Source of the DNA: Candidatus Poribacteria bacterium
GTDB lineage: Bacteria; Poribacteria; WGA-4E; WGA-3G
Direction: 5' to 3'
DNA length: 64,000 nt
Assembly: GCA_965197475.1 (NCBI GenBank)
Contig: CBDANF010000002.1
Span: 864,001 to 928,000 of the forward strand
Of the stretch, positions 34,791 through 51,751 are shown piece by piece. Position numbers and translations under genes: made by a program. Numbering within the stretch: position 1 is the first letter of the stretch; each line of letters opens with the position of its first letter. Below the pieces are notes generated by a model. That model did not search any database. It was not told the origin of the DNA and worked only from the letters and a program-made list of their open reading frames with translations.

Positions 34791-37685
34791 ATGAAAAATA
34801 GATTTATTAACCTTACGCTAATTGTTCTAATTTTGATTAGTACGGTAGGTTGCTCAGCTGTGAAGGTTGTGCAAACACAGGCCCGTATTGGTGTTGAGAA
34901 AACTGTAGGTGCTGCAGAGGAACGCCGGACGAAATTGAATCGAAGAGATTTCCGACTTGGGTTCAACGCAACGGAAAACCAACTCGGGGTCCGTCTTGAA
35001 TATCGACCGTATTATAGTCTCGAAAAACAAGAAATAGTAACATACCATCCTACTAAAACAACCGCACTCGAAAAGATCATGATGCTTGCGTACGCAGGAG
35101 GCTTTGTATGGATATTATCTGATGTTCTTGTCGAGACAGGTGAAGTTGCGGTAAATGATGAAGGGAAATTATATAATGTCACTGAATTCGACTGGAGTAG
35201 GACAAATTCAACGCAAAGGGCAATTATGGTTGCGGCTCCACTGGACTTAATTTTATGGGGTTTTGCCCATGGAGATAAGACGGTCCGTGAACCGTGGCGG
35301 AAGACAAGTGAAGTTGCAGGAGAATGGCAATTCTTGGAAAAACATCCCTACCGCTTAGAACTCCCTACCTATAACTTTGGTAAGGATTACCTATCAAATA
35401 CTGGCAATGAAAGTATTCGAATCTACGACTTCCTGTCTGGCGTGGATAATCCACTTCGGTTCAGAGATATAAATTCTGTTTCACTTCGTGCTTCAACTAA
35501 GGTTGATGAGGAAACATACCTAAAAGACCTCAATCTTACCTCACAAGCACAACTAAGACCTTTTCATGACTCAGTCCTTGCCGCTTTGAATATTGATATG
35601 ATTTCAACGGGAAAACCGCGCCTCATGCCGAGGCCTGAAGTCCAAACAGAATGGCATAAAGGGGCTGTTCAAGCCGGTGAGCAGGCAACCCTAATCGTGA
35701 CGGTTAAAAATACAGGTAAAGGCGAACTTTATCGACTCACCGCACGCACAGTCAGTTCGAATAAAGCATTTAACAATAAGGAACTGAAATTTGGCAAAAT
35801 TGATCCAGGTGATTCAAAAATAGCCTCTGTCACTTTCAACATAGACAAATTGATGCACACACAAGAAATCCCTATAAGTGTCAAGTTTGCGGAATTCAAC
35901 GGTCATATTCCCGATAATATTGCTGCGAAACTTCAAGTTAGCGAAATACCGCGTCCGAAGTTTGATTATGCCTATCGTGTCATTGATGGCGGTACTGACA
36001 CCTCAGTTGGAAATGGAGATGGCATTTTCCAACGAGGTGAATCAGCAGATATCCGCGTGATGGTGCGAAACGGTGGCAAAGGAAAAGCGGCAGGGGTCAC
36101 GGCAAAATTGAATCTACTGGACCGCACAGGCGTTGACATCTATGGAGATACACTCGTAAATCTTCAGACACTTGAACCCGGGAAATCTAAGACTGCAACC
36201 TTTAACGTCGGTGTTAAACGTTCGACCTCAATTAGAAACTTACGTGTGAATTTGTCTGTCCAAGAAAATTACTTCGGCTCAGAAACGAGTCTCACGGAGA
36301 CGCTCAATCTGCCAATAGATAGGGTCGCCGCGCCAAAGGTTAAAGACCTTGATTTAGTCGCGACGACAACGTCAAATTCTGTGCAGGTATATAATGGCGC
36401 GTCAAGGATCACACCCATCAGTGCAGAAATTCCAGGAAATGCACAGGTCAAGGTTTCCGGGCAACTTGGGGAATGGTATCGTGTAGAACTTAGTGTCAGC
36501 GACCAAAAGACTACAGGATGGGTTCATCGGGAGCAACTGACAACACTGAGGGTTGCAAGACAACCGAATGCCCAAATAGAACCCCCCGAAGTGGTAGAAG
36601 TGTTCCAAAACACGCCGCCAACATTAGCACTCTTTGAACCGGCACAGCAGCAGGTAGAGGTAGAGGAAAGCACACTTGTCCTCGAAGCAATTGCTGTTGC
36701 GAATAAAGGTGTTAAAAACGTGGCGTTAACTGTCAATGGAAGAGCTACAAGCACTATGAAACAGGGAATGAACAATACTCAGCAGACACACCCGACTGTG
36801 GTTAGAATAAAACAGACCCTATCGCTTCGCTATGGTAAGAACATCATTATGTTGAGTGCTATTGATACAGAGAACCGTTCTTCTGAACCTATCGTGCTTT
36901 CTGTGACCCGCGCACGTGAATTGGTCAGACAGGACTACGCTTTGTTGTTTGGTGTGAACAGTTATGAACACTTTGACCCGTGGCATAAACTCAATAATCC
37001 TATTCCTGACGCGGAAGCTATCCGAGATGAACTAAAAAATAAATACGGATTTGCCGTTGAATTGGTTAGTGACCCATCGCGAGATGAGATTCTTACGAAA
37101 ATCAACGAATATGCTCAGAAAAAGTATAATGAGAACGACCAGATCCTGATATTTTTCGCAGGTCACGGCTATTTTGAGGAAACAAATGATGTCGGCATCG
37201 GCTACCTCGTTGCAAGCGATACAAAGCCGCCAGAGGCTGACCGGGGCAAATCAAGCTATATCTCACACGGAGATCTCCGTGAACGGGTTGAAAATATCGG
37301 GTGTGAACACATTTTTCTGATGATTGATGCCTGTTTTAGTGGTACGTTCGACCCGCTTGTGGCGCAGTTCAATCGAGCGCGAGGTGCAAATAGAATACCC
37401 GATAATGTCTCTCGCTCAAAATATATTAAACAAACGTTAACTTACAAAACTCGGTTGTTTCTTACATCAGGTGGCAAAGAGTATGTATCAGATGGTGTTC
37501 CAAACCGTCATTCGCCATTTACACGTCGGGTGCTTGATGCATTGCGTAGTGGTGGTGGGCAACACGGCATCCTGACGTTAGATGATATTCGGCGTTCCGT
37601 TGAAAAAGCCACACCTCAACCGCGTGCAGGCGAATTTGGCACGAATGCGCCGGGGAGCAACTTCTTGTTCATCCGTGACCAATAA
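34791..37685 (+). CDS. Large putative lipoprotein: Ig-like (CARDB-like) domains, SH3-like domain and C-terminal caspase-like peptidase C14 domain
   Basis: Signal ending TVGC; VTVKNTGKG and VRNGGKG Ig motifs; GEWYRV...GWV; YALLFGVNSY, FFAGHG, IDACFSG, HSPFT. Confidence 0.82.
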   Translation: MKNRFINLTLIVLILISTVGCSAVKVVQTQARIGVEKTVGAAEERRTKLNRRDFRLGFNATENQLGVRLEYRPYYSLEKQEIVTYHPTKTTALEKIMMLAYAGGFVWILSDVLVETGEVAVNDEGKLYNVTEFDWSRTNSTQRAIMVAAPLDLILWGFAHGDKTVREPWRKTSEVAGEWQFLEKHPYRLELPTYNFGKDYLSNTGNESIRIYDFLSGVDNPLRFRDINSVSLRASTKVDEETYLKDLNLTSQAQLRPFHDSVLAALNIDMISTGKPRLMPRPEVQTEWHKGAVQAGEQATLIVTVKNTGKGELYRLTARTVSSNKAFNNKELKFGKIDPGDSKIASVTFNIDKLMHTQEIPISVKFAEFNGHIPDNIAAKLQVSEIPRPKFDYAYRVIDGGTDTSVGNGDGIFQRGESADIRVMVRNGGKGKAAGVTAKLNLLDRTGVDIYGDTLVNLQTLEPGKSKTATFNVGVKRSTSIRNLRVNLSVQENYFGSETSLTETLNLPIDRVAAPKVKDLDLVATTTSNSVQVYNGASRITPISAEIPGNAQVKVSGQLGEWYRVELSVSDQKTTGWVHREQLTTLRVARQPNAQIEPPEVVEVFQNTPPTLALFEPAQQQVEVEESTLVLEAIAVANKGVKNVALTVNGRATSTMKQGMNNTQQTHPTVVRIKQTLSLRYGKNIIMLSAIDTENRSSEPIVLSVTRARELVRQDYALLFGVNSYEHFDPWHKLNNPIPDAEAIRDELKNKYGFAVELVSDPSRDEILTKINEYAQKKYNENDQILIFFAGHGYFEETNDVGIGYLVASDTKPPEADRGKSSYISHGDLRERVENIGCEHIFLMIDACFSGTFDPLVAQFNRARGANRIPDNVSRSKYIKQTLTYKTRLFLTSGGKEYVSDGVPNRHSPFTRRVLDALRSGGGQHGILTLDDIRRSVEKATPQPRAGEFGTNAPGSNFLFIRDQ

Positions 37686-37723
37686 AGCACATTTTAAAAT
37701 AAAAAATTAGGAGGTTACAAATA

Positions 37724-38077
37724 ATGGCTAAAGTTTTTCAAGGTCAAAAGGGTTGGCTTGACGATCCTATTTTGATGGTAGAGAAAGGGGAGGTATTTAC
37801 CTATCCAAAGGGTTGGCTTGACGATCCCATTCTGACTATTGAAGGTAGCACTATCTACAACGGAGAGAAGGGTTGGAATGACGACCCGATTGCCACTGTT
37901 GAAGATAACAAGGTTTACGAGGGAGAGAAGGGTTGGAATGACGACCCGATTGCCACGATTGAAGGTGATGAAGTTTATGAGGGTGAGAAAGGTTGGAGTG
38001 ATGACCCCATCGCAACTATTGAAGAAGGTGGACGTATGTCTGCAGCTGCTGCCGCAGTGTATTTACTTCTCATGTAG
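37724..38077 (+). CDS. Five-repeat (20 aa) protein with C-terminal hydrophobic helix, beta-flower-like
   Basis: KGW(L/N/S)DDPI repeated five times at 60-nt period; ends AAAAAVYLLLM; AGGAGG RBS. Confidence 0.7.
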   Translation: MAKVFQGQKGWLDDPILMVEKGEVFTYPKGWLDDPILTIEGSTIYNGEKGWNDDPIATVEDNKVYEGEKGWNDDPIATIEGDEVYEGEKGWSDDPIATIEEGGRMSAAAAAVYLLLM

Positions 38078-38139
38078 GCAACGCAGCATCCCGAATGGTT
38101 GAAAATCATTCGGATTATATATAGAAAGGAGGAATACAA

Positions 38140-40221
38140 TTGTCTAAAATTGTTGGAATTGATTTAGGAACAACGTTTTCCGCTGTCGCACACATCAACG
38201 AAAACGGGGTTCCCGAACTCATCCCTAATGAAGACGGTAAGCGTCTAACCCCAAGCGTCATCTTCTACAATAATAGCGAATTCATTGTAGGAGAATATGC
38301 GAAACAGAATGCTTTAGCAGAACCTGAAAATACTGTTGAGTTCATCAAACGCGAAATGGGTAAGCCGCTCTCGGAATTCTCCCGCGAATTCGGAGGAAAA
38401 GAATACTCATCAGAAGAACTCTCCGCCGAGATACTTAAAACTCTCAAAAAGGATGCGGAAGCTAAACTTAAAGAACAGGTAACTGACGCTGTTATTACAG
38501 TTCCTGCTTACTTTAATGACCCAGAACGTAAAGCGACTATCCGTGCAGGTGAAATCGCCGGACTGAACGTTCAACGCATCATAAATGAACCTACGGCTGC
38601 CGCGCTATCTTACGGCATGCACCACAGCGGCGATACAGCAACAGTCTTAGTCTTTGACCTCGGCGGTGGCACCTTTGATGTGACGATTATGGAAGTTGAG
38701 GGACAGGAGATGAAAATTTTAGGGACCAACGGCGACCATCGACTCGGTGGGAAGGATTGGGACGATAAAATTATTATCCACGCAGCAGAACGTTTTAAAA
38801 GCGAACACGGCGAAAATCCTTTGACTGACCTTTCTACATACCTGGAAATACAGACAAGAGCAGTTGAAGCAAAGATTCAGTTGTCAACTCTCAACAGAGC
38901 CACTATCATTACCAATTATGCCGGAAAATCCCACCGACTTCAACTCACTCGGCAGGAATATGAGGCGATGACGACTGATCTCGTTGAACGATGCAGAAGT
39001 CTTGTAGAAGTAGTTTTACATGAGGTTAAACTTACTGCTGATCAGATTGATACTGTGCTCCTTGTTGGCGGGTCAACACGACTGCCGATGATTCAAAATA
39101 TGTTAACAGAATACTTCGGAAAGCCACCGGATACCTCAGTTAATCCTGATGAGACTGTTGTGTTTGGCGCGGCGATCATGGGTGAGCTTATTCAATCCGA
39201 AGAAACGAAAAAACGTCCATACCTCGGTGCAGGTCCGAAGCAGAACCTTGGTATCATGCGGATTAGCGATGTTTGTTCTCATAGTCTCGGCATGGTTGCA
39301 CTTGACAATATCGGTGAATTGTGTAATAGCATTATTATCCCCAAGAACACCAATATCCCATGCAATGTAAGCAAAGACAACTATTTGACAACGAGTCCTA
39401 ATCAGACTGAATTTGATATAATTGTTTTACAAGGCGGCGAGGAACTTGCCCCGCGTGAGTGCCCAGTGCGCGATGCTTACGAAGTTTTTGATATTCCACC
39501 ACGCCCTGCCGGAGAGACGCGTCTTAAAGTAACTTTTAAATATAATGCAAGCGGTATTATTGAAGTTGAGGCAGAAGATGTGCAATCTAAAAAAGTGCTC
39601 CCAATTCGAAAAAAAGTAGAGGACATTGATTGGGACGAACTGGAATCACCGACACCTGTTGCCATGCCCATGGACATCGCTCTCGCTATTGACTGTTCTG
39701 GCAGTATGAGTGGAGGTGACATTGACGATGCGAAAGCTGCTTCATCTCGGTTCCTTGATAACATTGATCCAAGTTCACAAGTCGGGCTCGTCAGTTTCGG
39801 GGGCTCTGAGATTGAAATTGAGATGCATCTTACACAAGATTTTGACCAACTCCGGCAGGCAATTGAAAACCTCAGAACAAGAGGCACTACACCTATGACT
39901 GAAGCAATTGCCTTGGTGAGAAAACATGTCCTCATTAACAGCCAAAATACCAATGTGCTTATTCTTTTGACCGACGGCTTTCCTGACGAGAAAAACACCA
40001 CTCTTACAGAGGCTGAGTTTGCTAAACAACAGGGTATCCAAATTATTGCAATAGGTGTCGGCGATGGCGTTGGAAGCGACTATCTTAAGCAGATTGCTTC
40101 AACACCTGAAGATTACTACTTTGTGGAGGAGAGCGTCCAGCTTGAATCCACATTTACGTCGATCGCGAGTCGCCTTGTCACGGAATCCTTAGGGCGCACT
40201 GCCGGAATCTCAAGACGTTAA
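38140..40221 (+). CDS. Hsp70-family protein fused to a C-terminal vWA domain
   Basis: GIDLGTT, AVITVPAYF, INEPTAAA, FDLGGGTFD, VGGSTR; vWA MIDAS DCSGSM, GTTP, LLTDG, IAIGVG. Confidence 0.92.
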   Translation: MSKIVGIDLGTTFSAVAHINENGVPELIPNEDGKRLTPSVIFYNNSEFIVGEYAKQNALAEPENTVEFIKREMGKPLSEFSREFGGKEYSSEELSAEILKTLKKDAEAKLKEQVTDAVITVPAYFNDPERKATIRAGEIAGLNVQRIINEPTAAALSYGMHHSGDTATVLVFDLGGGTFDVTIMEVEGQEMKILGTNGDHRLGGKDWDDKIIIHAAERFKSEHGENPLTDLSTYLEIQTRAVEAKIQLSTLNRATIITNYAGKSHRLQLTRQEYEAMTTDLVERCRSLVEVVLHEVKLTADQIDTVLLVGGSTRLPMIQNMLTEYFGKPPDTSVNPDETVVFGAAIMGELIQSEETKKRPYLGAGPKQNLGIMRISDVCSHSLGMVALDNIGELCNSIIIPKNTNIPCNVSKDNYLTTSPNQTEFDIIVLQGGEELAPRECPVRDAYEVFDIPPRPAGETRLKVTFKYNASGIIEVEAEDVQSKKVLPIRKKVEDIDWDELESPTPVAMPMDIALAIDCSGSMSGGDIDDAKAASSRFLDNIDPSSQVGLVSFGGSEIEIEMHLTQDFDQLRQAIENLRTRGTTPMTEAIALVRKHVLINSQNTNVLILLTDGFPDEKNTTLTEAEFAKQQGIQIIAIGVGDGVGSDYLKQIASTPEDYYFVEESVQLESTFTSIASRLVTESLGRTAGISRR

Positions 40222-40262: not shown

Positions 40263-41177
40263 TTGAATAATGAAGATCAAACAATTAATGATACGACTGA
40301 AGTTACCGATACAGACACGACCGAGAGTCTGCCTGTAGAGGAACAGAACGCTGATACAGAAACAGGTCAGGAATCGGAGACAGAGCCGCCAGATGAAAAT
40401 GGAGATGACTCGCAAACCGAACCAGATCACGATGAAACAGCAGAACCACAAACCTCAAGAACTGAACCTGATCTGGAATACATGAACGTACTCAGATCGG
40501 TGGATCAGCACCTGTCAAGTTTGCAGGAGTTGTTTACAGGACAGATCACACGCAACCAAAACCAAAAGCAGATGTTCGATACGGTCTATCGTGAAATGAA
40601 GGAGTATAAGGAAAACACGCTTCTGGATACGTATCAGAAACCTGTTATCCATAATCTTATTCAATTCTATGATAACTATGTAGAGGTAGAATCCCAACTG
40701 GCCGATATCAATGAAACACTTCAAGTATTTGAGCCCTTGTTTGAGAATACCTCAGATAAAAAACTGAAAAAACTTCTATCCAAAGAAGTGGGTGACGATC
40801 TTGACAAGATTTGGAGGAATCTGAGAAAAACACTGTCTGAATTTAGCAATAATATGGAAAATGTCCGTGTTGAATTGGAAGAGGTGTTATATCGTATGGA
40901 TGTAGAACCTTATGAGCAGCAAGCGGAACAACCAAAGAAACTTGATCGGGCATTACACAAAACCCTTAAAACGACACCGACAGATAACCCCGATCAAGAT
41001 CAAGACGTGGCAGAAGTGCACAAAATCGGTTTCTATTGGCGTGAGAAGGTGTTTCGTCCAGAAGAGGTAACAATTTTCCGATACACGCCTCCCGCTGGTG
41101 AAGTTGAAGTAACACCAAGTGAAGAAACAGTGGGTGAAATCCCTACAGAAGAAAAAGGAGATAAAACAGATGGGTAA
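40263..41177 (+). CDS. GrpE-like nucleotide exchange factor
   Basis: Acidic N-terminal tail, coiled coil, then D...H...VAEVHKIGFYWREKVFRPEEV GrpE head motif. Confidence 0.78.
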   Translation: MNNEDQTINDTTEVTDTDTTESLPVEEQNADTETGQESETEPPDENGDDSQTEPDHDETAEPQTSRTEPDLEYMNVLRSVDQHLSSLQELFTGQITRNQNQKQMFDTVYREMKEYKENTLLDTYQKPVIHNLIQFYDNYVEVESQLADINETLQVFEPLFENTSDKKLKKLLSKEVGDDLDKIWRNLRKTLSEFSNNMENVRVELEEVLYRMDVEPYEQQAEQPKKLDRALHKTLKTTPTDNPDQDQDVAEVHKIGFYWREKVFRPEEVTIFRYTPPAGEVEVTPSEETVGEIPTEEKGDKTDG

Positions 41178-42771
41178 AGTTGTTGGAATAGATTTAGGAA
41201 CGACATTCTCCGCGATTGCGTATGTCAACGACCATGCACAGGAGGAGATTATCCCGAATGCTGAAGGTGACCGCACGACTCCATCAGTGATCATGTTTGA
41301 AGATGAGAACGTTGTCGTTGGGAAAATTGCCAAGCAGAATGCAAGTGCGGTGCCAGAACAGATTGTTGAATTCGTTAAACGCGAGATGGGGAAATCCAAA
41401 GAAGAGTACTCCCGTGAGTATGGCGGCAAGGTGTATTCGGCTGAAGAACTCTCCGCGCTGATTTTACAGAAACTCAAACAGGATGCTGAAGCGGAGCTTA
41501 ATGAAGAAATCACGGATGCGGTCATTACTGTCCCCGCCTATTTCAAGGATGCAGAACGAGAGGCAACACGGAATGCTGGGAAAATCGCGGGATTAAATGT
41601 CTTGCAAGTAGTGAATGAACCGACCGCTGCTGCACTTGCTTACGGGATTGATCAACACGGTAGCGATCAGACTGTGTTTGTGTTTGACCTCGGCGGTGGA
41701 ACGTTCGACGTGGCCATCATGAGGGTTTCTGGGTCCGAGTTAGAGATGATTGCAACAAACGGAGACCACAGACTCGGTGGAAAGGACTGGGACGATAAGA
41801 TTATCACGTTTGTAGCTGATACGTTTCAGAATGAACACCGTGTAAATCCGTTGCTGGACCTTCATGCATATCAGGAAATCCAACTGAGTGCAATTAGTGC
41901 GAAAGAGTCTTTATCGCAACGACAAAAAGCTCGTATCAGATGTAGCCACGATGGCAAAAGTAGCAATGTTGAGGTAACGCGAGAAAAGTTTGAAGAACTC
42001 ACTGCAGATTTGGTCGAAAGATGCAGTTCCCTCTGTGTTATCGTTCTTGATGAAGCTGGGATGACGTGGGAAGATATTGATACGGTGTTAATGGTCGGTG
42101 GTTCAACACGCATGCCGATGGTGCAAGAGATGGTTACAAAGATTAGCGGTAAAGATATCAACCCGCGGGAGGTCAATCCTGATGATGCGGTAGCACTCGG
42201 TGCAGCAATCCAGGGTACACTCCGTCAACTTGAGGAAGTAGTGATTGAAGGCAAAGATGATACAACAAAGGAAGAAGATATTGCAGATGCTGTCATGGAG
42301 CGGTTCATTGCGCCTGACGGAGGTCTCGCAATAACGGTAACCGACCGTGCCACACACAACCTTGGGCTTGTGGTATATACATCCGCAGATAGTGAGGGGT
42401 CCATCCATGTGATGATTGCCAAGATGACATCCGTGCCATGTGAGGTTGAAGATCAGTTTGGAACACTCGTTGAAAAGCAATCTTCACTCCTGGTAGAGGT
42501 CATTCAAGGGCTTGAACAGGGTCAAGAAGAGGATGAAATTATCAAGTTTGAGAATCACAAGTTGGGTGAATGTCTCCTTGAATTGCCTCCTGGTCTACCA
42601 AAGGGAACACCCATTGATGTTACCTATAAGTATAACTTGGACCAAACGCTTGAGGTAACGGCAAAAGGACCGGATGGGCGCACAGCAAATGTGACGATTG
42701 ATCGTCCGACGCTTGACGAGGCTGAAGTTGCTGAAGCGATTACACACCTGCAAAGCCTGGAAGTTGAATAG
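41170..42771 (+). CDS. Second Hsp70-family protein, short and lacking the helical lid
   Basis: Full ATPase-domain motifs, then a beta substrate-binding domain (LPPGLPKGTPIDVTYKYN) and only a short helix. Confidence 0.92.
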   Translation: MGKVVGIDLGTTFSAIAYVNDHAQEEIIPNAEGDRTTPSVIMFEDENVVVGKIAKQNASAVPEQIVEFVKREMGKSKEEYSREYGGKVYSAEELSALILQKLKQDAEAELNEEITDAVITVPAYFKDAEREATRNAGKIAGLNVLQVVNEPTAAALAYGIDQHGSDQTVFVFDLGGGTFDVAIMRVSGSELEMIATNGDHRLGGKDWDDKIITFVADTFQNEHRVNPLLDLHAYQEIQLSAISAKESLSQRQKARIRCSHDGKSSNVEVTREKFEELTADLVERCSSLCVIVLDEAGMTWEDIDTVLMVGGSTRMPMVQEMVTKISGKDINPREVNPDDAVALGAAIQGTLRQLEEVVIEGKDDTTKEEDIADAVMERFIAPDGGLAITVTDRATHNLGLVVYTSADSEGSIHVMIAKMTSVPCEVEDQFGTLVEKQSSLLVEVIQGLEQGQEEDEIIKFENHKLGECLLELPPGLPKGTPIDVTYKYNLDQTLEVTAKGPDGRTANVTIDRPTLDEAEVAEAITHLQSLEVE

Positions 42772-42860: not shown

Positions 42861-43439
42861 ATGAAAATCAACCCATCATTCCATATCTTAGTCTTTTTCA
42901 TATCAATACTAACTTGTGTTGTCCCCCTTGCTACCTATGCACAACATAGCTCAACATCTACAAGAGTTAGACCTACTTCAGAAGGGAAGATACCAAGTGA
43001 AGTTTATTATGACGTAGGAATTTTCGCAGGTTTGGTCCCTGACAAGGATTTCATCGGCACCATTGGCTATAGGATTGGTCTGTCCTATGAGACACCATCT
43101 TATGCTATAGAGGTTAAAGGACTGATTTTCGCGACTGATCTTGTCCACTTCGCCGCTTCTTCGCTCGGTGCTCACTACTTCTTGAACAGACAGAATATTT
43201 CATCCTACGTGGGTGGTGGATACACCATATCCAGTACCTCCCATGGCACTTCGTATGGAAGAGGCATGGGTGTGTTTTTGATTACCGGACTACAGATGTT
43301 TCGTTTCAAGAAGCATCGCTTGAAATTCGAATTTCGTGTAGACAGACCTTTTTATACGTTGGATACCCTTAGTCCGACACCTATAACAATTGGCATCTTC
43401 TATTCACGTGATTTGAGAAGCATCTTAAGGTGGCGATAA
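42861..43439 (+). CDS. Secreted, probable small outer-membrane beta-barrel protein
   Basis: Signal peptide ending ATYA; Gly/aromatic alternating strands (SSYVGGG). Confidence 0.5.
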   Translation: MKINPSFHILVFFISILTCVVPLATYAQHSSTSTRVRPTSEGKIPSEVYYDVGIFAGLVPDKDFIGTIGYRIGLSYETPSYAIEVKGLIFATDLVHFAASSLGAHYFLNRQNISSYVGGGYTISSTSHGTSYGRGMGVFLITGLQMFRFKKHRLKFEFRVDRPFYTLDTLSPTPITIGIFYSRDLRSILRWR

Positions 43440-43440
43440 A

Positions 43441-44910: not shown

Positions 44911-47342
44911 ACTATTTTGACGTGCTTGAACTCTCAATTGACAAAATACAAGGTCAAGACGAGGCAACTATTCAAAGCGATGTTACCGCCGCTCACAAGA
45001 GGCTCTATGCGCGCACGGTTGGTGCGTATGCCAACGTGCCACGCCCGGACGGAAAAACTCAAGCACAGTGGCAAGTAATCTTGAATGATGCGCGGGATAC
45101 CTTGTTAGACCCACAGAAGCGACAGGAGCATATTGCGCAGATTATACCAGATCCAGTCCCCGTTCCTAAGCCTGACCCAGACCTCATACCGGGAACACGC
45201 ACGAATGCTCGTCCTTTCTTAAAAGTGTCTATTGCTGCTGTCCTGTTCGCGCTCTCGGTTGTGGGTGGTATTGTTATTTATTCTGAATGGACAGCTGAAA
45301 GTACAAGACGCGCACAGGAACAAACCGAAACACAACGTCAAGGACAAGCAGCATTAGAAAAGCAGCGTCAAGAAAAGGCAGCAACGGAAGCACAACTCGC
45401 AGTAGAGAGAACGATACTCGCGGAGAGGCGCGATAAATTTATTGAGAAAATGGGATTTGCAGGCGCAACCGACCTACATGTTGCAGCAGGACTGAATCTG
45501 CCCCTACTGACTCAATCGTTCCTGGATCGGGGGGCGGATGTTAACGTGAATGATTACAATGGTGCAACTCCGCTGCACTATGCTGCAATTGAAAATGCAA
45601 ATGAAACAGCAACAGTTTTACTTAAAAACGGTGCTAAAGTAAATGAGCCTGCTCTCGCGGGATCTACCTACGTCATCACGCCGCTACACGAAGCGGCGGA
45701 ACACAATGCTGCTGAGACAGCAGAGGCGTTGCTGAATTACGGTGCAAATGTTAACGAAATGAACAAATATATTACATCACCGTTGCACTGGGCAGCAGAG
45801 GAGAACGCTTATGAGGTGGCAAAAGTGTTGCTGCAAAACGGCGCAAAGGTCAATGCTGAAACCGAATATGGTGAAACACCGCTGCATATGACAGCATGGA
45901 ACAATGCATATGAAACAGCGGAGGTACTTCTAAAAAACGGTGCACAAGCCAACGTAAGGGATGGAGAAAGTAAGACACCGCTTCACATGGCGGCAGAGAA
46001 AAATGCTCATGAAGTAGCGGGACTTCTATTGAAAAGTGGTGCACACGTCAACGCAAAGGATTACAAAAACAGAACACCACTATACTTTGCAGCAGAGCGC
46101 AATGCGCGGGAAATGGTAACCCTCCTACTAAATGCTTATCCAGCCACACCACTACATTTTGCTGCCAGAGACAATGACCATAAGACTGTAGAAACTTTAC
46201 TGGAAAACGGGGCAGATATCAATGAGAAGATAGAAGATGGTTTTACACCGCTGCACTTCGCGGTAAGAGCGAATGCTACTGCGACCGTGGAACTTCTGTT
46301 GATAAATAATACAGATGTTAACGCTAAAACCGTATACGGTGGCACACCACTACATGATGCAGCGATATACGATGTTTATGCAATAACGGAATTCTTGGTG
46401 CAAAACGGTGCTGATATAAACGCAAGGAACTCTTTTGGTAATACACCCCTACACGATGCAGCGTGGAATAGTGCATATAAGACAGCAGATATCCTACTCA
46501 ATTATGATGCTAATGTGAATGCAAAGAATGATACAGAAGAGGAATCTTTATATCTGAATTGGGGGAAAATGAGGAATGGCGAAACACCGCTACATATTGC
46601 AGCACTAAACAATGATGATAGGATGACAAAACTTTTACTAAAAAGTGGCGCGGAGGTAAACACAAAAGACAAGGATGGTGACATACCCCTGCACTATGCA
46701 GCTAAGAGAAACGGACATAAAACTGTGGAATTGCTAATCAATCACGGTGCAAGTGTCAACGAAAAAGGTGATTCATATTACGGTTATACTGCACTGCACT
46801 GGGCAGCGGAGAAAAACGCGTATGATACAATACAAATCCTACTAAGATACGGTGCTAAGGTCAACGCAAAGTGCAAACGTGGCAATACTCCGCTGCATTC
46901 GGCAGCAGATGGAAATGCTCGTGAAACATCGGAGTTATTACTAAAAAATGGCGCAGATGTCAACGCAAAGAATGAATCTAACGAGACACCGCTACATACC
47001 ATCACTACTCCGGAGTATCGTGATGATCCAAAGGGGTTTGTTGAGACAGTGGAGTTATTGCTCAACAATGGTGCGGCTGTCAACGCAAAGAATGAATCTA
47101 ACGAGACACCGCTACATAGGGTTTTAACTCCATTCGGTGTTGTTCATCATGACAGAAAGGGGTTTGTTGAGACAGTGGAGTTATTGCTCAACAATGGTGC
47201 GGCTGTCAACACAAAGGATAAAGATGGTAAGACACCGTTGCACAAGGCAACGGACTTGTACGAGAAAACGGTCGACACTGGACCACAAAAGGCTTATAAG
47301 AGAGTAGTAGATCTGCTGCACCAGCACGGTGGCATAAAATAA
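44907..47342 (+). CDS. J-domain-like module + TM helix + coiled coil + long ankyrin array
   Basis: Same N-terminal module; TM VSIAAVLFALSVVGGIVIY; roughly 18 ankyrin repeats. Confidence 0.85.
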   Translation: MNYFDVLELSIDKIQGQDEATIQSDVTAAHKRLYARTVGAYANVPRPDGKTQAQWQVILNDARDTLLDPQKRQEHIAQIIPDPVPVPKPDPDLIPGTRTNARPFLKVSIAAVLFALSVVGGIVIYSEWTAESTRRAQEQTETQRQGQAALEKQRQEKAATEAQLAVERTILAERRDKFIEKMGFAGATDLHVAAGLNLPLLTQSFLDRGADVNVNDYNGATPLHYAAIENANETATVLLKNGAKVNEPALAGSTYVITPLHEAAEHNAAETAEALLNYGANVNEMNKYITSPLHWAAEENAYEVAKVLLQNGAKVNAETEYGETPLHMTAWNNAYETAEVLLKNGAQANVRDGESKTPLHMAAEKNAHEVAGLLLKSGAHVNAKDYKNRTPLYFAAERNAREMVTLLLNAYPATPLHFAARDNDHKTVETLLENGADINEKIEDGFTPLHFAVRANATATVELLLINNTDVNAKTVYGGTPLHDAAIYDVYAITEFLVQNGADINARNSFGNTPLHDAAWNSAYKTADILLNYDANVNAKNDTEEESLYLNWGKMRNGETPLHIAALNNDDRMTKLLLKSGAEVNTKDKDGDIPLHYAAKRNGHKTVELLINHGASVNEKGDSYYGYTALHWAAEKNAYDTIQILLRYGAKVNAKCKRGNTPLHSAADGNARETSELLLKNGADVNAKNESNETPLHTITTPEYRDDPKGFVETVELLLNNGAAVNAKNESNETPLHRVLTPFGVVHHDRKGFVETVELLLNNGAAVNTKDKDGKTPLHKATDLYEKTVDTGPQKAYKRVVDLLHQHGGIK

Positions 47343-47358
47343 GGAGGATTGACATAGA

Positions 47359-48711
47359 ATGGAAAACTATTTTGATGTACTTGAACTCTCAATTGATGAT
47401 ATTCAAGGCAAAGATGAGACAACTATTCAAAACCTTGTTAACGCCGCTCACAAAAGACTCTATGCGTTCACGATTGGTTCGTATGCCCCAGTGCCACGCC
47501 CGGACGGAAAAACCCAAGCCCAGTGGCAGGTAATCTTGAATAATGCGCTAAAAACCCTGTTAGACCCGCAGAAGCGGCAAGACCATATTGCGCAGCTGCA
47601 ACCGGATCCAGTCCCTGTTCCCTCGCGAACCATCATCAGGTTCCGAAACGGAGATGAAGCCACCAGCATACCTCAGTTGATAACCTTAATGGAAAAGAAC
47701 GCCAGTGAAGCTACCGATATACTCTATCAAGGTTATCTGGAACAAGGTCTGGCAGGAGCTGGAGAAACTCCCTTTGCCATTGCGGCGAAGGCGGTCGTCA
47801 GTCAATTTTCAAGTAATCGTTCCATAGGATTGATGGCGATGGTGGCAATTCTTCGCGGTAAAGTAAAAATGCACAGAGGTGGTGAAGCAAGCAACCCAAA
47901 ACAGCTGGCAAGTCTGATAGACCAGAATTGGGAAGATGCAAAAACACTTCTCTATAACGGATTTTTTGAGTTCTGGTTCGAATATACTAACCAAACACAA
48001 CTTGCGGGTACAACGAAAAAAATAACGAGCACCTTTAGGAACGAGCAAGACATCGGTTTAGAAGAACTTATTCAAAGACTTGACCCACAAATTGGGAAGC
48101 CGGAACCTGAGGTAAGTCACACCAAGTTGGACTTCGGGAGTATGATCAAAAAAAGTGAAAAAACGATCCGTTTAAAAATTAAGAATATTGGTCGGGGTTT
48201 TCTCTCTGGCGACGTCCAGATAGAAAGCGGGCTACCGGGTCTGCAGATTTCAGAGACTGAAATCATTGGGGACGGTGTTATCACTGTTAAATTAGATGCC
48301 AGTGCCCTAAAAGCCAAACAAACGCATAAAACGTCCCTTATTATTGACACCAATGCTGGAAATATAATAGTCCCGATTTCTTGCTACATTGATGATCCAA
48401 AGCAACAAGCTGTCCAACGCATCGCTATCAGTGGTTTCTCTGTGGCAGCGATAGCACTTGTTGCGCGCCTGATCGTTCAGCAATTCGTGAGTTCTGGGTG
48501 GTTAGCAACCGGTTTGACAGGGGCAGGTTTCACAGACTGGGCACAACATTGGAACTGGGTCAAATGGTTTGAATGGCCAGGTTTTGAATGGCAAGTCTAT
48601 ACACTTGGAGCATCCAGAGCTGATTTAGGATTTGTAATTGCGCTCACATCCCTCGGAGCAGGCGTATTTGTCTACTGGAAATATGTCTTCAAGAAAAATA
48701 GAGTTAGCTGA
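47359..48711 (+). CDS. J-domain-like module + duplicated helical unit + Ig-like domain + TM helices
   Basis: Same N-terminal module; two G.EA....QL..L...N...A...LY.G..E units; LDFG...IKNIGRGFLSG Ig-like domain; hydrophobic C-terminus. Confidence 0.75.
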   Translation: MENYFDVLELSIDDIQGKDETTIQNLVNAAHKRLYAFTIGSYAPVPRPDGKTQAQWQVILNNALKTLLDPQKRQDHIAQLQPDPVPVPSRTIIRFRNGDEATSIPQLITLMEKNASEATDILYQGYLEQGLAGAGETPFAIAAKAVVSQFSSNRSIGLMAMVAILRGKVKMHRGGEASNPKQLASLIDQNWEDAKTLLYNGFFEFWFEYTNQTQLAGTTKKITSTFRNEQDIGLEELIQRLDPQIGKPEPEVSHTKLDFGSMIKKSEKTIRLKIKNIGRGFLSGDVQIESGLPGLQISETEIIGDGVITVKLDASALKAKQTHKTSLIIDTNAGNIIVPISCYIDDPKQQAVQRIAISGFSVAAIALVARLIVQQFVSSGWLATGLTGAGFTDWAQHWNWVKWFEWPGFEWQVYTLGASRADLGFVIALTSLGAGVFVYWKYVFKKNRVS

Positions 48712-48738
48712 TGATTTGGGATGTTCCTATCAATCCGG

Positions 48739-48819
48739 CAATTGAATGGCTCTGGGTCAGGGGAACTTCGGTTCTCGACTATCAGTGTGTTCGTCGCGAT
48801 TCGGAGATCGCTCCTACAG
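48739..48819. repeat. Dispersed repeat pieces shared with 15112-15192
   Basis: CAATTGAATGGCTCTG and TCGCGATTCGGAGATCGCTC occur at both sites; here the latter ends in CTAC (reverse GTAG). Confidence 0.6.
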
Positions 48820-48894
48820 CAGAGTAAATTGAATAAACCGCCAAAAAAATGGAAAACTAAATGGTTCTGACTATTCATAGCAAGGAGTTGCTAA

Positions 48895-50409
48895 ATGTTA
48901 GAAGAACTAATTATCCGTATCATGGGGCACGCCGTTGCGCAACGGATTTTCGGTCGCCGCTCAACCAATACGACTACAAATACACAACAACGTCGCGGTT
49001 GTTGGGATAGGTGGGGTAGATGGGGTTGTGCAATTGTTCTTGGTATTGTCGTTACTATTATTGCAGCGTTTTGGGCAATTGCTTTCGGGATTGTTGTTGC
49101 TGTCACATACACAGGGCTCAGTTTATATACCGGTTTGAAGTTCCTTGCTACGAATGCTTTTATTGCGCTGGATAAACTGTTTTATCCCGGATTTGAAGCA
49201 CCAACTGTTGTGGTTTGGGGGCTGTGGGGACTTGTCGGTGGTGCAGCGATCCAGGGATGCCGTGAATTGTTAAACTATGGACGAAAGGGAATGGGGATAT
49301 TGGTGGTGGTGCTTGCTCCCGTGATTTTATTTGTTCTTACAGGAATAGTTAAAAACAACATCAGTGTGCCGAATACATCAGATATAAAACCCATAACGAC
49401 AGTAGAACAAAAAACATCCAGACCAGAAACGGAACCTATAAAGACAACGAAACCGACACCATCTGCAACAGAGCAGACCACAACTGAACCTGAGAAGAAA
49501 CCTGTCAAGACGACAACACGTAGGGAACCGGTCCAAACTACCAAACGAAAAGACACCGCTCCAGTCAAACCTACGGAGCCGACACGGGTTACCACAAAGC
49601 AGAATACGGTTACGACACCGCCTGTAGCACCAAAACCCTCAACGCTTTCAGTACCTGTCGGTATGGTGTTGATTCCTGCTGGCGAGTTTCAGATGGGCAG
49701 CACCGACAACGCAGACGAGAAACCGGTGCACACTGTCTACACAGACGCTTTTTATATGGACAAATATGAGGTAACAAACGCGCAATATAAGGTGTTTATT
49801 GATGCGAACCCACAGTGGCGGAAAGACCGGATACCGACCAAATATCACGATGGCGATTACCTAAAACATTGGAATGGAAACAACTACCCAAGCGGAAAAG
49901 GCAACCATCCGGTGAACTATGTGAGTTGGTATGGCGCAATGGCTTATGCGAAATGGGCAGGCAAGCGGTTGCCAACAGAGGCTGAATGGGAGAAAGCCGC
50001 ACGCGGTGGATTAGTCAGCAAGAAATACCCATGGGGTAATGATATTGATCCCACAAAAGCAAATTATGATAAGAACGTTGGCAATACGAGGTTTGTAGGG
50101 TGGTATGGCGCCAATGATTATGGCTTGTATGACATGGCGGGGAACGTGCTTGAATGGTGTCTTGATAGGTATGATGAAAATTTCTATGGCACCGCCTCGC
50201 GACAGAATCCGATTGCAGGTGGAAACATAAAGGGTATTACAGGAAACTTTCTTAATAGTACAGCAACTCGTGTGTTGCGCGGTGGTTCATGGAGTGTCCT
50301 TGCACAAAACGTGCGTGTCGCTGATCGGACGAAGGGAAATCCTACGCTCTCTTACTTTGGGCTGGGGTTTCGGTGTGTGAGAGCAGTCCCACAGTCGGAT
50401 AGAGATTAG
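48895..50409 (+). CDS. Membrane protein with Thr/Pro linker and FGE-sulfatase (SUMF1-like) domain
   Basis: Three to four TM helices, then IPAGEFQMG, YEVTNAQY, RLPTEAEWEKAARGG, DMAGNVLEW, RGGSW, GFRC. Confidence 0.9.
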   Translation: MLEELIIRIMGHAVAQRIFGRRSTNTTTNTQQRRGCWDRWGRWGCAIVLGIVVTIIAAFWAIAFGIVVAVTYTGLSLYTGLKFLATNAFIALDKLFYPGFEAPTVVVWGLWGLVGGAAIQGCRELLNYGRKGMGILVVVLAPVILFVLTGIVKNNISVPNTSDIKPITTVEQKTSRPETEPIKTTKPTPSATEQTTTEPEKKPVKTTTRREPVQTTKRKDTAPVKPTEPTRVTTKQNTVTTPPVAPKPSTLSVPVGMVLIPAGEFQMGSTDNADEKPVHTVYTDAFYMDKYEVTNAQYKVFIDANPQWRKDRIPTKYHDGDYLKHWNGNNYPSGKGNHPVNYVSWYGAMAYAKWAGKRLPTEAEWEKAARGGLVSKKYPWGNDIDPTKANYDKNVGNTRFVGWYGANDYGLYDMAGNVLEWCLDRYDENFYGTASRQNPIAGGNIKGITGNFLNSTATRVLRGGSWSVLAQNVRVADRTKGNPTLSYFGLGFRCVRAVPQSDRD

Positions 50410-50452
50410 ATCCTTCTATATGCCAACTAATGAATTCAAAGGAGATTAATTA

Positions 50453-51751
50453 ATGATTCCTATGAAAAATCTGATTATTTCAAGCCTATTGCTTTTGGTG
50501 TTTACGTCACTGTGTTTAACAGGTTGTGGCGGTCAACACAGCCAATTCATGGAGAGCGCACAAGCAAATTATCGAGTTAAAGATTATGATGCTGCCTTAC
50601 GCGATACAGTAATGGCGTTGCAGTATAAGCCAAATTATGAGAAAGCACAGATTTACGTCAAAGCATTTTTCGACACCGCAGTGCAAGTTCATCAAGGCAG
50701 AATAAAAGCTCTTGAAACCACTTCGGACAAATTCAGGTGGGACCAGATCGTGGCAGAGTATGATGGTCTTATCGAAATCAACAGACTGGTGAGCAGTTTA
50801 CCGCCCTTGAAGCGTAAAAAGACCTCGGAACCAATTATTTTTGACATAAAAGATTATACTGCTCAATTTAATGAGGCATTAGAAGAAGCTGCAGCGGCAC
50901 ACTACCAGGAAGGTATTCGCTTGGCTGATTTATCTGATGATCCCGATACTCAGAAGCGCGCGGCGAAAGAATTCAAAATGGTTGAAGAATTCGTTATTGG
51001 CTATAAGGATACACAAACTCGGTATGAACAAGCCAGAAGTGCAGGCGTTAAGAGAATCGCAATTTTGACGTTTGAGGACAAAAGTGGGAGAAGACGTGCT
51101 TATGGTGCGATTTCAGAGACAATCACCGACAATATCATTGGTAGTCTCCTGAACGACCCAGAATCGACTGAATTCCTGACAATTGTCTCTCGAAATCACC
51201 TTGAACAGGTTATTGCGGAACAAGACTTAAATTTTGCAGGCCTGCTTGATAGGCGCACAGTTGCAAGTTTAGGCAAGGTACTCGGTGTACACGAAATAGT
51301 GGTCGGACAAATTACCCAAATTATCTACATACCTCCAGATATCAAAAGGACAACATTAAATCGTGAAAGAACAGAAAATAAGAAGACAGGAACAGTAAAA
51401 TACGTTGGTAAAAATGGCAAAACCAAAACCAGACCGAAGTATTCTGATGTGACTGTCACTGCGAAACTCCTACATTATGAACTGAAATCTTCTGTCTCAA
51501 TTATCGGTTCCTACAAAATCCTTGACGCGCAAACCGCTGAACTTAAGAAAGCAGATAACTTTACCACAAAGCATGAATTCATATCGGAGTGGGCGAGTTT
51601 TATAGGGAACGAAGACGCGTTAACCAGAAATGACCTGATTCTTGTTGACCGCGATAAAGAAAATGCACCTATTGAAAAGGTTATGGTGCTTGAAGCGTCA
51701 AATAAACTGTCTCATGAACTTGCAGAAGCACTAAAAACGTACGTGCGATAA
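50453..51751 (+). CDS. Lipoprotein with TPR-like helices and a CsgG/TolB_N-like domain
   Basis: Lipobox LTGC; RIAILTF...IVSRNHLEQVIAEQ...LGKVLGVHEIVVGQI. Confidence 0.7.
   Translation: MIPMKNLIISSLLLLVFTSLCLTGCGGQHSQFMESAQANYRVKDYDAALRDTVMALQYKPNYEKAQIYVKAFFDTAVQVHQGRIKALETTSDKFRWDQIVAEYDGLIEINRLVSSLPPLKRKKTSEPIIFDIKDYTAQFNEALEEAAAAHYQEGIRLADLSDDPDTQKRAAKEFKMVEEFVIGYKDTQTRYEQARSAGVKRIAILTFEDKSGRRRAYGAISETITDNIIGSLLNDPESTEFLTIVSRNHLEQVIAEQDLNFAGLLDRRTVASLGKVLGVHEIVVGQITQIIYIPPDIKRTTLNRERTENKKTGTVKYVGKNGKTKTRPKYSDVTVTAKLLHYELKSSVSIIGSYKILDAQTAELKKADNFTTKHEFISEWASFIGNEDALTRNDLILVDRDKENAPIEKVMVLEASNKLSHELAEALKTYVR

Follow-up and report, generated by a model that had tools for sequence, protein, structure and literature searches.

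A lineage-specific elaboration of a conserved four-gene Hsp70 module in a Candidatus Poribacteria genome

Introduction

Does a run of eleven co-oriented genes that encodes two Hsp70-type proteins, a GrpE-like protein, a caspase-like protein and three J-like membrane proteins represent a single system, and if so, which part of it is conserved and what might it do? The question is raised by a locus of Candidatus Poribacteria bacterium (assembly GCA_965197475.1), in which a stretch of 64,000 nucleotides (contig CBDANF010000002.1, positions 864,001 to 928,000 of the forward strand; hereafter the window, in which positions are numbered from its first letter) contains this run on its forward strand at positions 34779-51751. 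A first-pass annotation made from the letters of the window had proposed an undescribed, self-contained eleven-gene chaperone machine that is recruited to the membrane by J-like adaptors. The comparison with other genomes presented here indicates that a specialised Hsp70 module of four conserved genes has been elaborated at this locus in a lineage-specific way. The module consists of an Hsp70 fused to a vWA domain (Hsp70-vWA), a GrpE-like nucleotide exchange factor, a second Hsp70 (Hsp70b) and a membrane J-protein with no HPD motif in its J domain.

A Conserved Four-Gene Core

Orthologues of Hsp70-vWA were identified in seven of the 176 genomes of the phylum, this genome included. Hsp70-vWA is followed by Hsp70b in all six of the other phylum loci, and a GrpE-like gene is located between the two Hsp70 genes and a gene for a J-like protein after them with two exceptions: locus L040 stops at a contig edge inside Hsp70b, and in genome G129 the GrpE-like part and Hsp70b form one 660-aa open reading frame (ORF; L045/L081:4331-6313), which is either a fusion or an artefact of ORF calling. 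The loci from two other families of the phylum (L043 and L044) contain only the core, with J-like proteins that carry HEAT repeats and with no lipoprotein or caspase gene nearby. Outside the phylum, a locus on a Latescibacteria chromosome (L079) contains genes for a six-fold beta-flower protein, a stand-alone homologue of the N-terminal domain of the caspase-like lipoprotein, Hsp70-vWA, the GrpE-like protein and Hsp70b, together with a J-like protein that has an Ig-like domain and transmembrane (TM) segments, an ankyrin protein and a PPC/Sel1-repeat protein with a BLASTP match to the FGE protein of the window.

A scan of metagenomes returned 14 further loci with ~45% identity in the vWA part, nine of which were analyzed (L086-L094; L085 and L095-L098 were left out as short or partial matches). 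The order Hsp70-vWA, GrpE-like, Hsp70b is present in all nine, and in the six loci where a fourth gene is present its product matches the Pfam DnaJ profile above the cut-off (40-54 bits). None of these six J-proteins contains the His-Pro-Asp (HPD) motif of J-domains; they share the motif KY..[AS]R[DNE]K, mostly have predicted TM segments, and vary in their C-terminal parts (an Ig-like match in L086, Lcl_C in L087). In L086 the module is followed by genes for a PEGA-TM protein, two CsgG/LpoB/FlgO-like lipoproteins and an LPP20-like lipoprotein, in L093 by a gene for a glycine-zipper lipoprotein, and rhomboid genes are located upstream in L086 and L090. Two of the metagenome loci (L092:1139-7618 and L093:1-5571) carry genes for a HerA-like (DUF87) ATPase and a third Hsp70 (717 aa) directly upstream of Hsp70-vWA. 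Clusters of Hsp70+vWA fusions in the Atlas are ~690 aa long, with Bacillota, Myxococcota, Actinomycetota and Thermoplasmatota as the most commonly recorded phyla, and an additional shorter (356 aa), lower-scoring cluster is recorded from Planctomycetota. A tblastn search of plasmids with the substrate-binding and vWA part returned two haloarchaeal vWA proteins only and no module.

Since the gene order is conserved in the phylum, in the Latescibacteria and in the metagenomes, the conserved unit is the four-gene module, and the recurrence of this order in other genomes makes the arrangement more than chance. The core genes thus co-occur across genomes, as the first-pass annotation had expected of a genuine system, and the unit of eleven genes that it had drawn shrinks to four. 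The module is a real, conserved specialised Hsp70 system for which no published description was found, and it is of a kind already known, namely a dedicated set of Hsp70, J-protein and nucleotide exchange factor.

Two Lid-Less Hsp70s with Their Own Exchange Factor

The Pfam HSP70 profile matches Hsp70-vWA with 451 bits over profile positions 1-494 of 599, and the VWA profile matches it with 97 bits. Hsp70b matches the HSP70 profile with 416 bits, is 49% identical to Hsp70-vWA, ends ~30 residues past the beta domain and contains an insert of 25-33 aa ahead of the interdomain linker. A lid-less Hsp70 had been noted in the first-pass annotation, which correctly described Hsp70b and overlooked that the helical lid is missing from Hsp70-vWA as well. 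The metal ion-dependent adhesion site (MIDAS) motif DxSxS...T...D of the vWA domain is complete, its columns are invariant in alignments A4 and A5, and 92 of the 119 database matches to this part are themselves Hsp70+vWA fusions. The end of Hsp70-vWA (window positions 40180-40218) and the C-termini of distant Hsp70-vWA proteins (P0072-P0094) share a similar short tail that is Gly-rich and then reads L/I-S/T-K/R-L/F/R. It might be speculated that this tail is a docking peptide for an Hsp70 substrate pocket.

Six residues that we take to be those of the ATPase (D8, K70, E171, D194, T199, and D201 in DnaK numbering) are retained in both Hsp70s. The NCBIfam DnaK models (NF001413 / TIGR02350) score 448 for Hsp70-vWA and 431 for Hsp70b against a cut-off of 648, so that neither is a canonical DnaK by this measure. 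The equivalent of DnaK R167, presumably the partner of the aspartate in the HPD motif of J-domains, is an arginine in the Hsp70-vWA proteins of Poribacteria and Latescibacteria and is replaced in the eight Hsp70b rows by glutamine (seven rows) or histidine (one row). If R167 is indeed this partner, the absence of HPD from the J-like domain described below is matched by the loss of the usual contact in Hsp70b.

A maximum-likelihood tree was built from 23 rows of our own choice (five Hsp70s of this genome, E. coli DnaK, HscA and HscC, and orthologues from other loci and from the database) and rooted at the midpoint. The Hsp70-vWA and Hsp70b groups form one clade (support 98/98), the Hsp70b clade has a support of 100/100, and both DnaK and HscA are located outside, in agreement with the earlier expectation that the two window proteins do not belong to the housekeeping Hsp70s. 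E. coli HscC is the sister of the clade (98/95) on a branch of length 2.3; given this long branch and the arbitrary root, the designation "HscC-like" is a lead only.

The GrpE-like protein matches PF01025 with 36.8 bits (cut-off 25.8) over residues 141-271 and profile positions 33-163 of 165, and scores 22.9 against the NCBIfam GrpE equivalog, far under the cut-off of 176. It has 210 database relatives, the named ones being annotated as "nucleotide exchange factor GrpE [Candidatus Poribacteria]". A full-length housekeeping DnaK (891 bits) and three J-proteins with HPD are encoded elsewhere in the genome, which confirms separate dnaK and J-protein genes outside the cluster. Taken together, two Hsp70s with their own exchange factor, separate from the housekeeping DnaK/DnaJ/GrpE set, are strongly indicated.

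A Diverged J-Like Domain on Three Carriers

Three consecutive paralogs (positions 43441-48711) share an N-terminal stretch with 59% identity, the first 80 residues of which form a nearly identical domain. PF00226 does not match the three proteins at E values up to 0.01, nor were they recovered in a genome-wide search with this profile. An exhaustive search of 1.84 billion representative proteins yielded only 91 relatives of the domain, which is therefore a small and distinct family. A profile built from 23 members finds HscB (4it5, E 7e-6) and Jac1 (E 7.6e-4) as its best solved relatives, and the AlphaFold2 (AF2) model of the domain (pLDDT 93) retrieves J-domains in nearly all listed Foldseek matches (TMq 0.5-0.68, with weak E values of 0.06-1). 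A relative in another family of the phylum (L044) reaches 22.5 bits with PF00226, below the cut-off. HPD is absent between helices II and III, where the window proteins read ...YANVPRPDG... and the 91 family representatives PR.DG or close variants; the loop between the two helices is longer and carries the conserved motif ...G.YANVPR.DG.... These data strongly indicate that the J-like domain is a true derivative of the J fold, and the window version is the most diverged form of the J domain of the module.

The first of the three carriers contains ankyrin repeats (116 bits) and a small helical domain (~84-137) that a consensus comparison also identifies in the J-like-FGE paralogs described below. 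In the second carrier (ankyrin, 376 bits) the repeats would be extracytoplasmic, provided that the J-like domain is cytoplasmic. The third carrier, the core J-protein, has an AF2 model with pLDDT 73 whose Ig-like part matches the HYDIN PapD-like domain (2e6j, E 2.5e-6), and its orthologues are located directly 3' of Hsp70b in L041, L042, L045, and L079. The first-pass annotation described all three as J-like membrane proteins and adaptors: TM segments are indeed present in each of them, the ankyrin repeats in two had been missed, and the description does not extend to most members of the family, the paralogs of 400-480 aa being free of predicted TM segments in the three loci scanned.

A Predicted Contact between Hsp70b and the J-Like Domain

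A complex prediction for Hsp70b and the J-like domain, based on self-made alignments, scored 0.62 compared with 0.00 for the best control; this mark is reached by 116 of 157 solved complexes and by 2 of 215 mismatched pairs. The prediction runs share at least 95% of their contacts and the partner has a pLDDT of at least 88. The predicted contacts involve a family-specific loop of the J-like domain (residues 36-49) and Hsp70b residues that map to DnaK 62-68, 84 and 230-259, which we take to be in lobes IB and IIB and not in the canonical J-domain site. On the Hsp70 side, many of the contacting residues are kept across both Hsp70 groups of the module and are different in DnaK. The model supports binding of the predicted type between the J-like domain and Hsp70b.

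Spread of the J-Like Domain onto FGE Arrays

The J-like domain was found in 61 of the 176 genomes of the phylum, almost all of them from one family and with up to 13 matches per genome, and within the window's genus 33 of 39 further genomes contain it. A scan of public genomes returned 36 J-like loci, of which 32 are titled Poribacteria, three "uncultured bacterium" and one Latescibacteria. An Hsp70b-type gene is located upstream in the fetched stretch of 27 of these 36 loci, and in the other nine the flank consists of the array itself or the contig end. In most of the loci Hsp70b, often with a GrpE-like gene, precedes a tandem array in which paralogs of 400-480 aa number up to nine or more. 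Each of the 130 J-like-FGE paralogs collected from these loci combines a helical domain of 58 aa with the J-like domain, a variable linker rich in Pro and an FGE-sulfatase domain, from whose consensus the catalytic Cys pair is absent. The linker and the C-terminal part of the FGE fold are the most variable regions, and some copies are broken. No TM segment was predicted in the 400-480-aa paralogs of the three loci scanned (L054, L063, and L074).

The window's own genome contains the J-like domain at three places only, two of which adjoin an Hsp70b-type gene. Besides the cluster, a locus on C2 (C2:1400637-1407024) carries a GrpE-like gene, an Hsp70b-type gene and three J-like-FGE genes, two of which are broken by stops or frameshifts, and a pair of J-like-FGE genes with no adjoining Hsp70 is present on C3 (C3:1371266-1374041). 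Carriers of the J-like domain in this Poribacteria family thus include ankyrin and HEAT proteins and, in tandem arrays, non-catalytic FGE/lectin-like proteins, onto which the domain has spread; it is strongly indicated that, the C3 pair apart, the domain always adjoins these Hsp70s.

A further protein encoded on C3 (349 aa, L008:1459-2508) combines a canonical J-domain with HPD and a non-catalytic FGE-sulfatase domain; such a protein may be the evolutionary source of the J-like-FGE paralogs. A diversity-generating retroelement (DGR) was considered as the mechanism behind the FGE arrays and was rejected for this genome (92.7% complete), in which no RVT_1 match was found.

Accessory Genes

Four further genes of the cluster, those for the caspase, the beta-flower, the FGE and the CsgG-like protein, are accessory. 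Close relatives have them and the Latescibacteria locus has some of them, whereas the two other families of the phylum lack them. The caspase lipoprotein is kept in genomes G112, G095, and G088, the latter two from the window's genus, the beta-flower protein in G112 and G088, and the FGE and CsgG-like proteins in G095 and G088; the G112 contig ends before the last two genes. The Pfam searches confirmed the identities that the first-pass annotation had assigned to the caspase-like, Hsp70-vWA, GrpE-like, Hsp70, FGE and CsgG-like proteins and corrected one, in that the supposed five-repeat protein is a six-fold beta-flower (PF21786).

The caspase-like protein matches Peptidase_C14 with 68 bits and CARDB with 41 bits, and scores 72.8 bits with the NCBIfam model "caspase, EACC1-associated type", under the cut-off of 140. 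The His (AGHG) and Cys (DACFSG) of its C14 domain and the signal/lipobox-like N-terminus were read by eye, and a phmmer search of the caspase domain against PDB gave no match, so that the dyad is a sequence-level assignment. Its N-terminal domain is homologous to the stand-alone 288-aa lipoprotein beside the Latescibacteria module (23% over 234 aa, E 7e-9), and orthologues of the whole protein are present in L040, L041, L042, and L045. The beta-flower gene is also located directly upstream of Hsp70-vWA in L040, L042, L045, and L079; its fold is described in the consulted part of PMC10584680.

The small exported protein encoded between Hsp70b and the first J-like protein had been called barrel-like. 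No Pfam or NCBIfam model matches it and its nearest Atlas clusters are similar to small outer-membrane barrel proteins (score 0.97), a lead only; its product is possibly an outer-membrane beta-barrel, and an orthologue with 37% identity is present in L042/L046. The catalytic Cys pair is absent from the membrane-anchored FGE protein, which reads GGSWSV---LAQNVR where the FGEs 6s07 and 6muj read GGSFLCHESYCNRYR, and by this measure the protein is not an active FGE. PDB matches of the FGE fold include PorK/GldK, PvdO and kinase-linked domains. The CsgG-like lipoprotein matches its Pfam profile only partially (positions 7-100 of 210) and has no NCBIfam match, and no csgE- or csgF-like genes were found among the Pfam results; orthologues with 75-84% identity are present in L041, L042, L046, and L047.

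Comparison with Known Systems

The closest characterised system is E. coli HscC with DjlB and DjlC, which likewise consists of a specialised Hsp70 with a shortened lid and adjoining paralogous membrane-associated J-proteins. The likeness extends to adjoining repeat proteins (the Sel1 proteins YbeQ and YbeT), and HscC is placed as the sister in the tree (98/95, on its long branch), which is a lead only. The J motif of DjlB and DjlC is a non-standard HPE according to the consulted part of a J-protein survey (PMC10410713). The window differs from this system in its two Hsp70s, one of them fused to vWA, in its dedicated GrpE-like gene and in a J motif that is neither HPD nor HPE; furthermore, the R167 equivalent is lost in Hsp70b, DUF1266 genes are absent, and caspase, beta-flower, FGE and CsgG-like genes are added. 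Compared with the housekeeping DnaK-DnaJ-GrpE set, the same three protein families are present and the ATPase residues are conserved, but the window Hsp70s lack the lid and score 448 and 431 against 648, the J domain lacks HPD and there is no CIRCE. HscB and Jac1 are the best PDB profile matches of the J-like domain; however, HscB has HPD, no isc genes are present here, and the window Hsp70s do not group with HscA. In mitochondria, Pam18 and Pam16, a membrane-anchored J-protein and an HPD-less J-like protein, place mtHsp70 and Mge1 at the membrane. By analogy, the J-like proteins of the window might position an Hsp70 and a GrpE-type factor at a membrane, although no translocon component and no HPD-bearing partner J-protein were identified in the cluster.

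Among predicted systems, the combination of an NTPase chaperone with vWA, caspase, FGE ("FGS") and repeat proteins resembles the nucleoside triphosphate (NTP)-dependent conflict systems predicted by Kaur, Burroughs, Iyer, and Aravind. The closest of these are the GAP1-N2 GTPase neighbourhoods with HSP70, GrpE and DnaJ-fused proteins, and one theme in the part of PMC7159879 consulted combines an HSP70 and a GrpE with a DnaJ fusion and a further HSP70 that has no peptide-binding domain. Unlike in the MoxR-vWA and GAP1-N2 systems, the vWA domain here forms part of an Hsp70, the beta substrate domain is retained in each of the two Hsp70s and a J-like domain without HPD serves as the adaptor; no MoxR AAA+ or GTPase gene is present in the cluster, and no AAA+/MoxR match was obtained among 12 cluster proteins (Pfam and NCBIfam). 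The architecture might still be listed in the figures or supplementary tables of PMC7159879. Within the full-text literature searched, which excludes subscription journals, no mention of an Hsp70-vWA fusion or of J-like/FGE arrays was found for this architecture or for Poribacteria, and neither vWA nor FGE/sulfatase is mentioned in the consulted text of two Hsp70 reviews (PMC8215388 and PMC13580251), the J-protein survey (PMC10410713) and a study of DnaK paralogs (PMC11019930). The description of the system as undescribed therefore holds for PADLOC and for this part of the literature.

A Possible Role and Its Alternatives

The Hsp70 pair, the exchange factor and the J-like proteins probably constitute an orthogonal Hsp70 machine that works with J-like tags. 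In such a machine the J-like domain would be a private docking tag that brings the module Hsp70(s) to its carrier, be it an ankyrin, HEAT, Ig-TM or non-catalytic FGE/lectin-like protein, and the loss of HPD from the J domain and of the R167 equivalent from Hsp70b would insulate the pair from DnaK and DnaJ. ATP hydrolysis and GrpE-driven exchange would then clamp, remodel or release the catch of the tagged binding domain, and the vWA MIDAS domain in the position of the lid would act as a second, metal-dependent grip. Of the self-contained, membrane-recruited chaperone machine that was first proposed, the non-housekeeping set of Hsp70s, nucleotide exchange factor and J-like proteins stands, and recruitment to the membrane does not fit most members of the J-like family.

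A role in conflict or surveillance, with ATP-gated sensing and response, has in our view slightly less than an even chance. Arrays of diversifying binders would feed the Hsp70 switch, whose envelope outputs at this locus would be the two lipoproteins (caspase-like and CsgG-like) and the small barrel. Such a role is suggested by the patchy distribution, by the diversifying and decaying paralog arrays and by a domain vocabulary, including the HerA-like ATPase of some relatives, that is common to the predicted NTP-dependent conflict systems. The set of vWA, caspase, FGE/"FGS" and ankyrin/HEAT domains matches these systems as presented in the consulted parts of PMC7159879 and PMC8195603. The more specific proposal of an Hsp70-centred immune-like system, in which an HPD-less J-like adaptor associated with effectors or sensors plugs arrays of diversifying lectin-fold, ankyrin and HEAT binders into an orthogonal two-Hsp70 ATP switch that has a vWA co-chaperone built in and drives envelope outputs, is tentative. 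Equally tentatively, such a system would stand to Hsp70s as the MoxR-vWA ternary and STAND-type systems stand to their own NTPases, with a four-gene core spread over several phyla.

Several observations weigh against an orthogonal machine with such a role. PADLOC-DB v2 gives no system-level match for the cluster: the generic matches are caspase (45.5 bits), PDC-M72A (up to 298 bits, on ankyrin repeats), Ankyrin and MzaA, and the two Hsp70s match only PDC-M61B (14-15 bits). The search of viral contigs gave no relative of the J-like domain, the absence of a reverse transcriptase from the genome (at 92.7% completeness) means that there is no DGR, the window does not stand out as a defence island or a mobile element, and none of the four core genes obviously encodes a toxic effector. 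Since the caspase-like domain is predicted to lie outside the cytoplasm and the Hsp70s inside it, a direct link from Hsp70 to caspase would need a transmembrane step. Ankyrin, TPR, LRR and WD40 repeats are common throughout the window, which makes their presence in the cluster weak evidence, and the CsgG/LpoB/FlgO/LPP20-like lipoproteins, PEGA, glycine-zipper lipoprotein and rhomboid near distant relatives point equally to the envelope. Finally, the Hsp70 tree is sparsely sampled, with a long-branched HscC and a midpoint root only, and the predicted interface of the J-like domain with Hsp70b lies off the canonical J-domain site and expresses the confidence of a model, which is not a measurement.

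The main alternative, a serious one without any conflict role that we regard as somewhat less probable than the conflict reading, is that the module serves envelope assembly, secretion or signalling: a membrane J-protein would bring the cytoplasmic Hsp70 pair to the inner membrane, where, with the same modest probability, the pair would hold, unfold or hand over the lipoprotein-caspase, the CsgG-like ring lipoprotein, the small barrel and perhaps the external ankyrin array. Precedents, for which PMC11019930 lists references, exist in the E. coli membrane J-proteins DjlA, DjlB and DjlC and in the control of extracellular fibrils by Myxococcus SglK/GrpS. Core J-proteins with TM segments and an Ig-like domain occur both in the window and in distant relatives, CsgG-like lipoproteins are kept beside the cluster in close relatives, and the envelope-type genes around the distant modules fit as well (PEGA-TM, the two CsgG/LpoB/FlgO-like and the LPP20-like lipoproteins after the module in L086, the glycine-zipper lipoprotein in L093, the upstream rhomboid genes in L086 and L090, and the stand-alone N-terminal lipoprotein-domain homologue beside the Latescibacteria module). 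However, the J-like-FGE paralogs, which are the most numerous carriers, have no signal peptide or TM segment where scanned, the L043 and L044 families keep the core with no lipoprotein or caspase gene nearby, and a distribution over 7 of 176 genomes would be unusual for a basic envelope function.

A different explanation is sulfatase proteostasis, which we consider improbable: non-catalytic FGE-like domains would bind the CxPxR segment of unfolded sulfatases, the J or J-like domain would recruit Hsp70, the clients would be kept competent for formylglycine modification and export, and the arrays would mirror a large sulfatase repertoire. Active FGE does bind unfolded sulfatase peptides, the genome contains at least 41 sulfatase-domain matches and 23 FGE-domain loci, and the fusion of an HPD J-domain to a non-catalytic FGE domain (L008:1459-2508) makes J plus FGE a recurring architecture in this genome. 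Yet the FGE-like domains lack the catalytic Cys pair, their peptide binding is putative only, unrelated roles are known for many FGE-fold proteins that are non-catalytic (the PDB matches include PorK/GldK, PvdO and kinase-linked domains), and no sulfatase gene was found within the cluster with Pfam. This explanation furthermore leaves the vWA fusion, the caspase, the ankyrin and HEAT carriers and the other C-terminal domains of the distant J-proteins unaccounted for. Least probable of all, and in our estimate very unlikely, is that the locus is no single system, merely a chance co-oriented run in which spare Hsp70 paralogs lie beside unrelated envelope and repeat proteins. The hairpin after the beta-flower gene (38091-38113), the promoter-like sites inside the cluster and the accessory genes that differ between loci would fit such a run, but the retention of the core order across two phyla and distant metagenome loci contradicts it for the core, several junctions overlap or sit within a few bases, two of the only three places with a J-like domain in the genome lie beside an Hsp70b-type gene, and the promoter-like sites are not more numerous than in shuffles (39 compared with 34.2).

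If the pair of J-like domain and module Hsp70 is truly orthogonal to DnaK and DnaJ, it would represent a natural example of rewired Hsp70-J specificity and possibly an insulated chaperone pair for engineering. Specialised bacterial Hsp70s beyond HscA are largely unexplored, and three features stand out here: vWA replaces the lid, J domains that lack the otherwise nearly universal HPD are paired with an Hsp70 that lacks R167, and the J-like tag has expanded onto arrays of lectin-fold proteins, which are non-catalytic. The occurrence of this tag on such arrays in sponge-symbiont-type bacteria suggests a new coupling of ligand recognition to the Hsp70 cycle, which could serve immunity, host interaction or client-specific folding.

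Locus Layout and Genomic Context

The eleven ORFs of the cluster all have the same orientation, with an intergenic spacing of -8 to 183 nt (table 1), confirming the tight co-oriented run that was first reported. The junctions of the GrpE-like gene with Hsp70b (if Hsp70b starts at the ATG at 41170) and of the two ankyrin genes (44907-44910) overlap. The cluster is bounded by a gap of 712 nt 5' of the caspase gene and a gap of 294 nt 3' of the CsgG-like gene, the latter with a promoter-like site at 51951-51979 (12/12 consensus matches). Promoter-like sites were identified by consensus match only (39 found, 34.2 expected from shuffles) and also occur inside the cluster. A terminator-like hairpin of 10 pairs (38091-38113) is located between the beta-flower and Hsp70-vWA genes and could attenuate or divide transcription. 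The earlier statement that canonical dnaJ and CIRCE are missing agrees with the absence of a canonical J domain from the cluster in the Pfam searches and of a CIRCE-like site, at up to three mismatches to the consensus, from the window.

Table 1. Coordinates and domain content of the cluster genes and flanking features (all on the + strand)
Feature	Position	Strand	Size (aa)	Description
Promoter-like site	34373..34401	+		11/12 consensus matches, in the 712-nt gap; possible start of the unit (weak evidence)
Caspase-like protein, probable lipoprotein/exported	34779..37685	+	968	Conserved N-terminal domain ~15-245; CARDB/Ig-like ~284-530; C14 720-944
Six-fold beta-flower protein	37724..38077	+	117	PF21786 53.2 bits (cut-off 34), profile 1-99 of 125; C-terminal hydrophobic helix
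Hsp70-vWA	38140..40221	+	693	Nucleotide-binding and beta-sandwich substrate domains; vWA (512-671) replaces helical lid
GrpE-like nucleotide exchange factor	40263..41177	+	304	Acidic low-complexity N-terminus
Hsp70b, second lid-less Hsp70	41170..42771	+	550/533	ORF opens with GTG 41119; ATG 41170 likely start
Small exported protein	42861..43439	+	192	Hydrophobic segment 9-27; no Pfam/NCBIfam match
J-like/ankyrin protein	43441..44910	+	489	J-like 1-80; small helical domain ~84-137; ankyrin repeats; TM 428-446 and 455-473
J-like/ankyrin protein	44907..47342	+	811	J-like 1-80; TM 107-125; ~13 ankyrin repeats (376 bits, 13 stretches)
Core J-protein	47359..48711	+	450	J-like 1-80; two helical repeats ~93-241; PapD/ASH-like Ig ~250-345; C-terminal TM segments
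FGE-sulfatase (C-type-lectin-fold) protein, membrane-anchored	48895..50409	+	504	PF03781 206 bits; TM segments
CsgG-like lipoprotein	50453..51751	+	432	Lipobox LTGC; PF03783 35.7 bits (cut-off 20.8)
Matrixin-like Zn-peptidase and TPR protein, exported	52046..54469	+		Neighbour, probably outside the unit

The product of the gene downstream of the cluster has a matrixin-like Zn-peptidase motif (HEFGHALGLWGH) in its N-terminal part and a long array of TPRs after it. This gene was considered as a twelfth member and rejected based on the 294-nt gap with its 12/12 promoter-like site and on its absence from the vicinity of the cluster in L041 and L042. Directly upstream of the cluster (32891-34066, +) a pentapeptide-repeat domain is fused to a two-TM ion-channel domain.

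No integrase or transposase domain was found among the Pfam matches of the window, and the comparison with PHROGs returned only generic Hsp70, ankyrin and FGE-like families and no other phage-type genes. A Zeta-toxin/AAA_33-like kinase (55517-56206, -) and a stand-alone N6/N4 DNA methylase (59544-60347, +) are encoded a few kb downstream of the cluster, and two overlapping ORFs at 3659-4808 (-) each give a partial match to AAA_21 (AbiEii-type ATPase), as if a single gene had been split by a frameshift. The remainder of the window consists of metabolic genes and many WD40, LRR and TPR genes. The WD40/LRR "eukaryote-like" repeat genes are dense in the window and are accompanied by a PSCyt/DUF1549/DUF1553 gene and two DUF1501 genes typical of Planctomycetes-like genomes (together at 4959-8679 (-), 25844-27656 (+), 29411-30109 (+), and 21865-25806 and 27708-31638 (+)).

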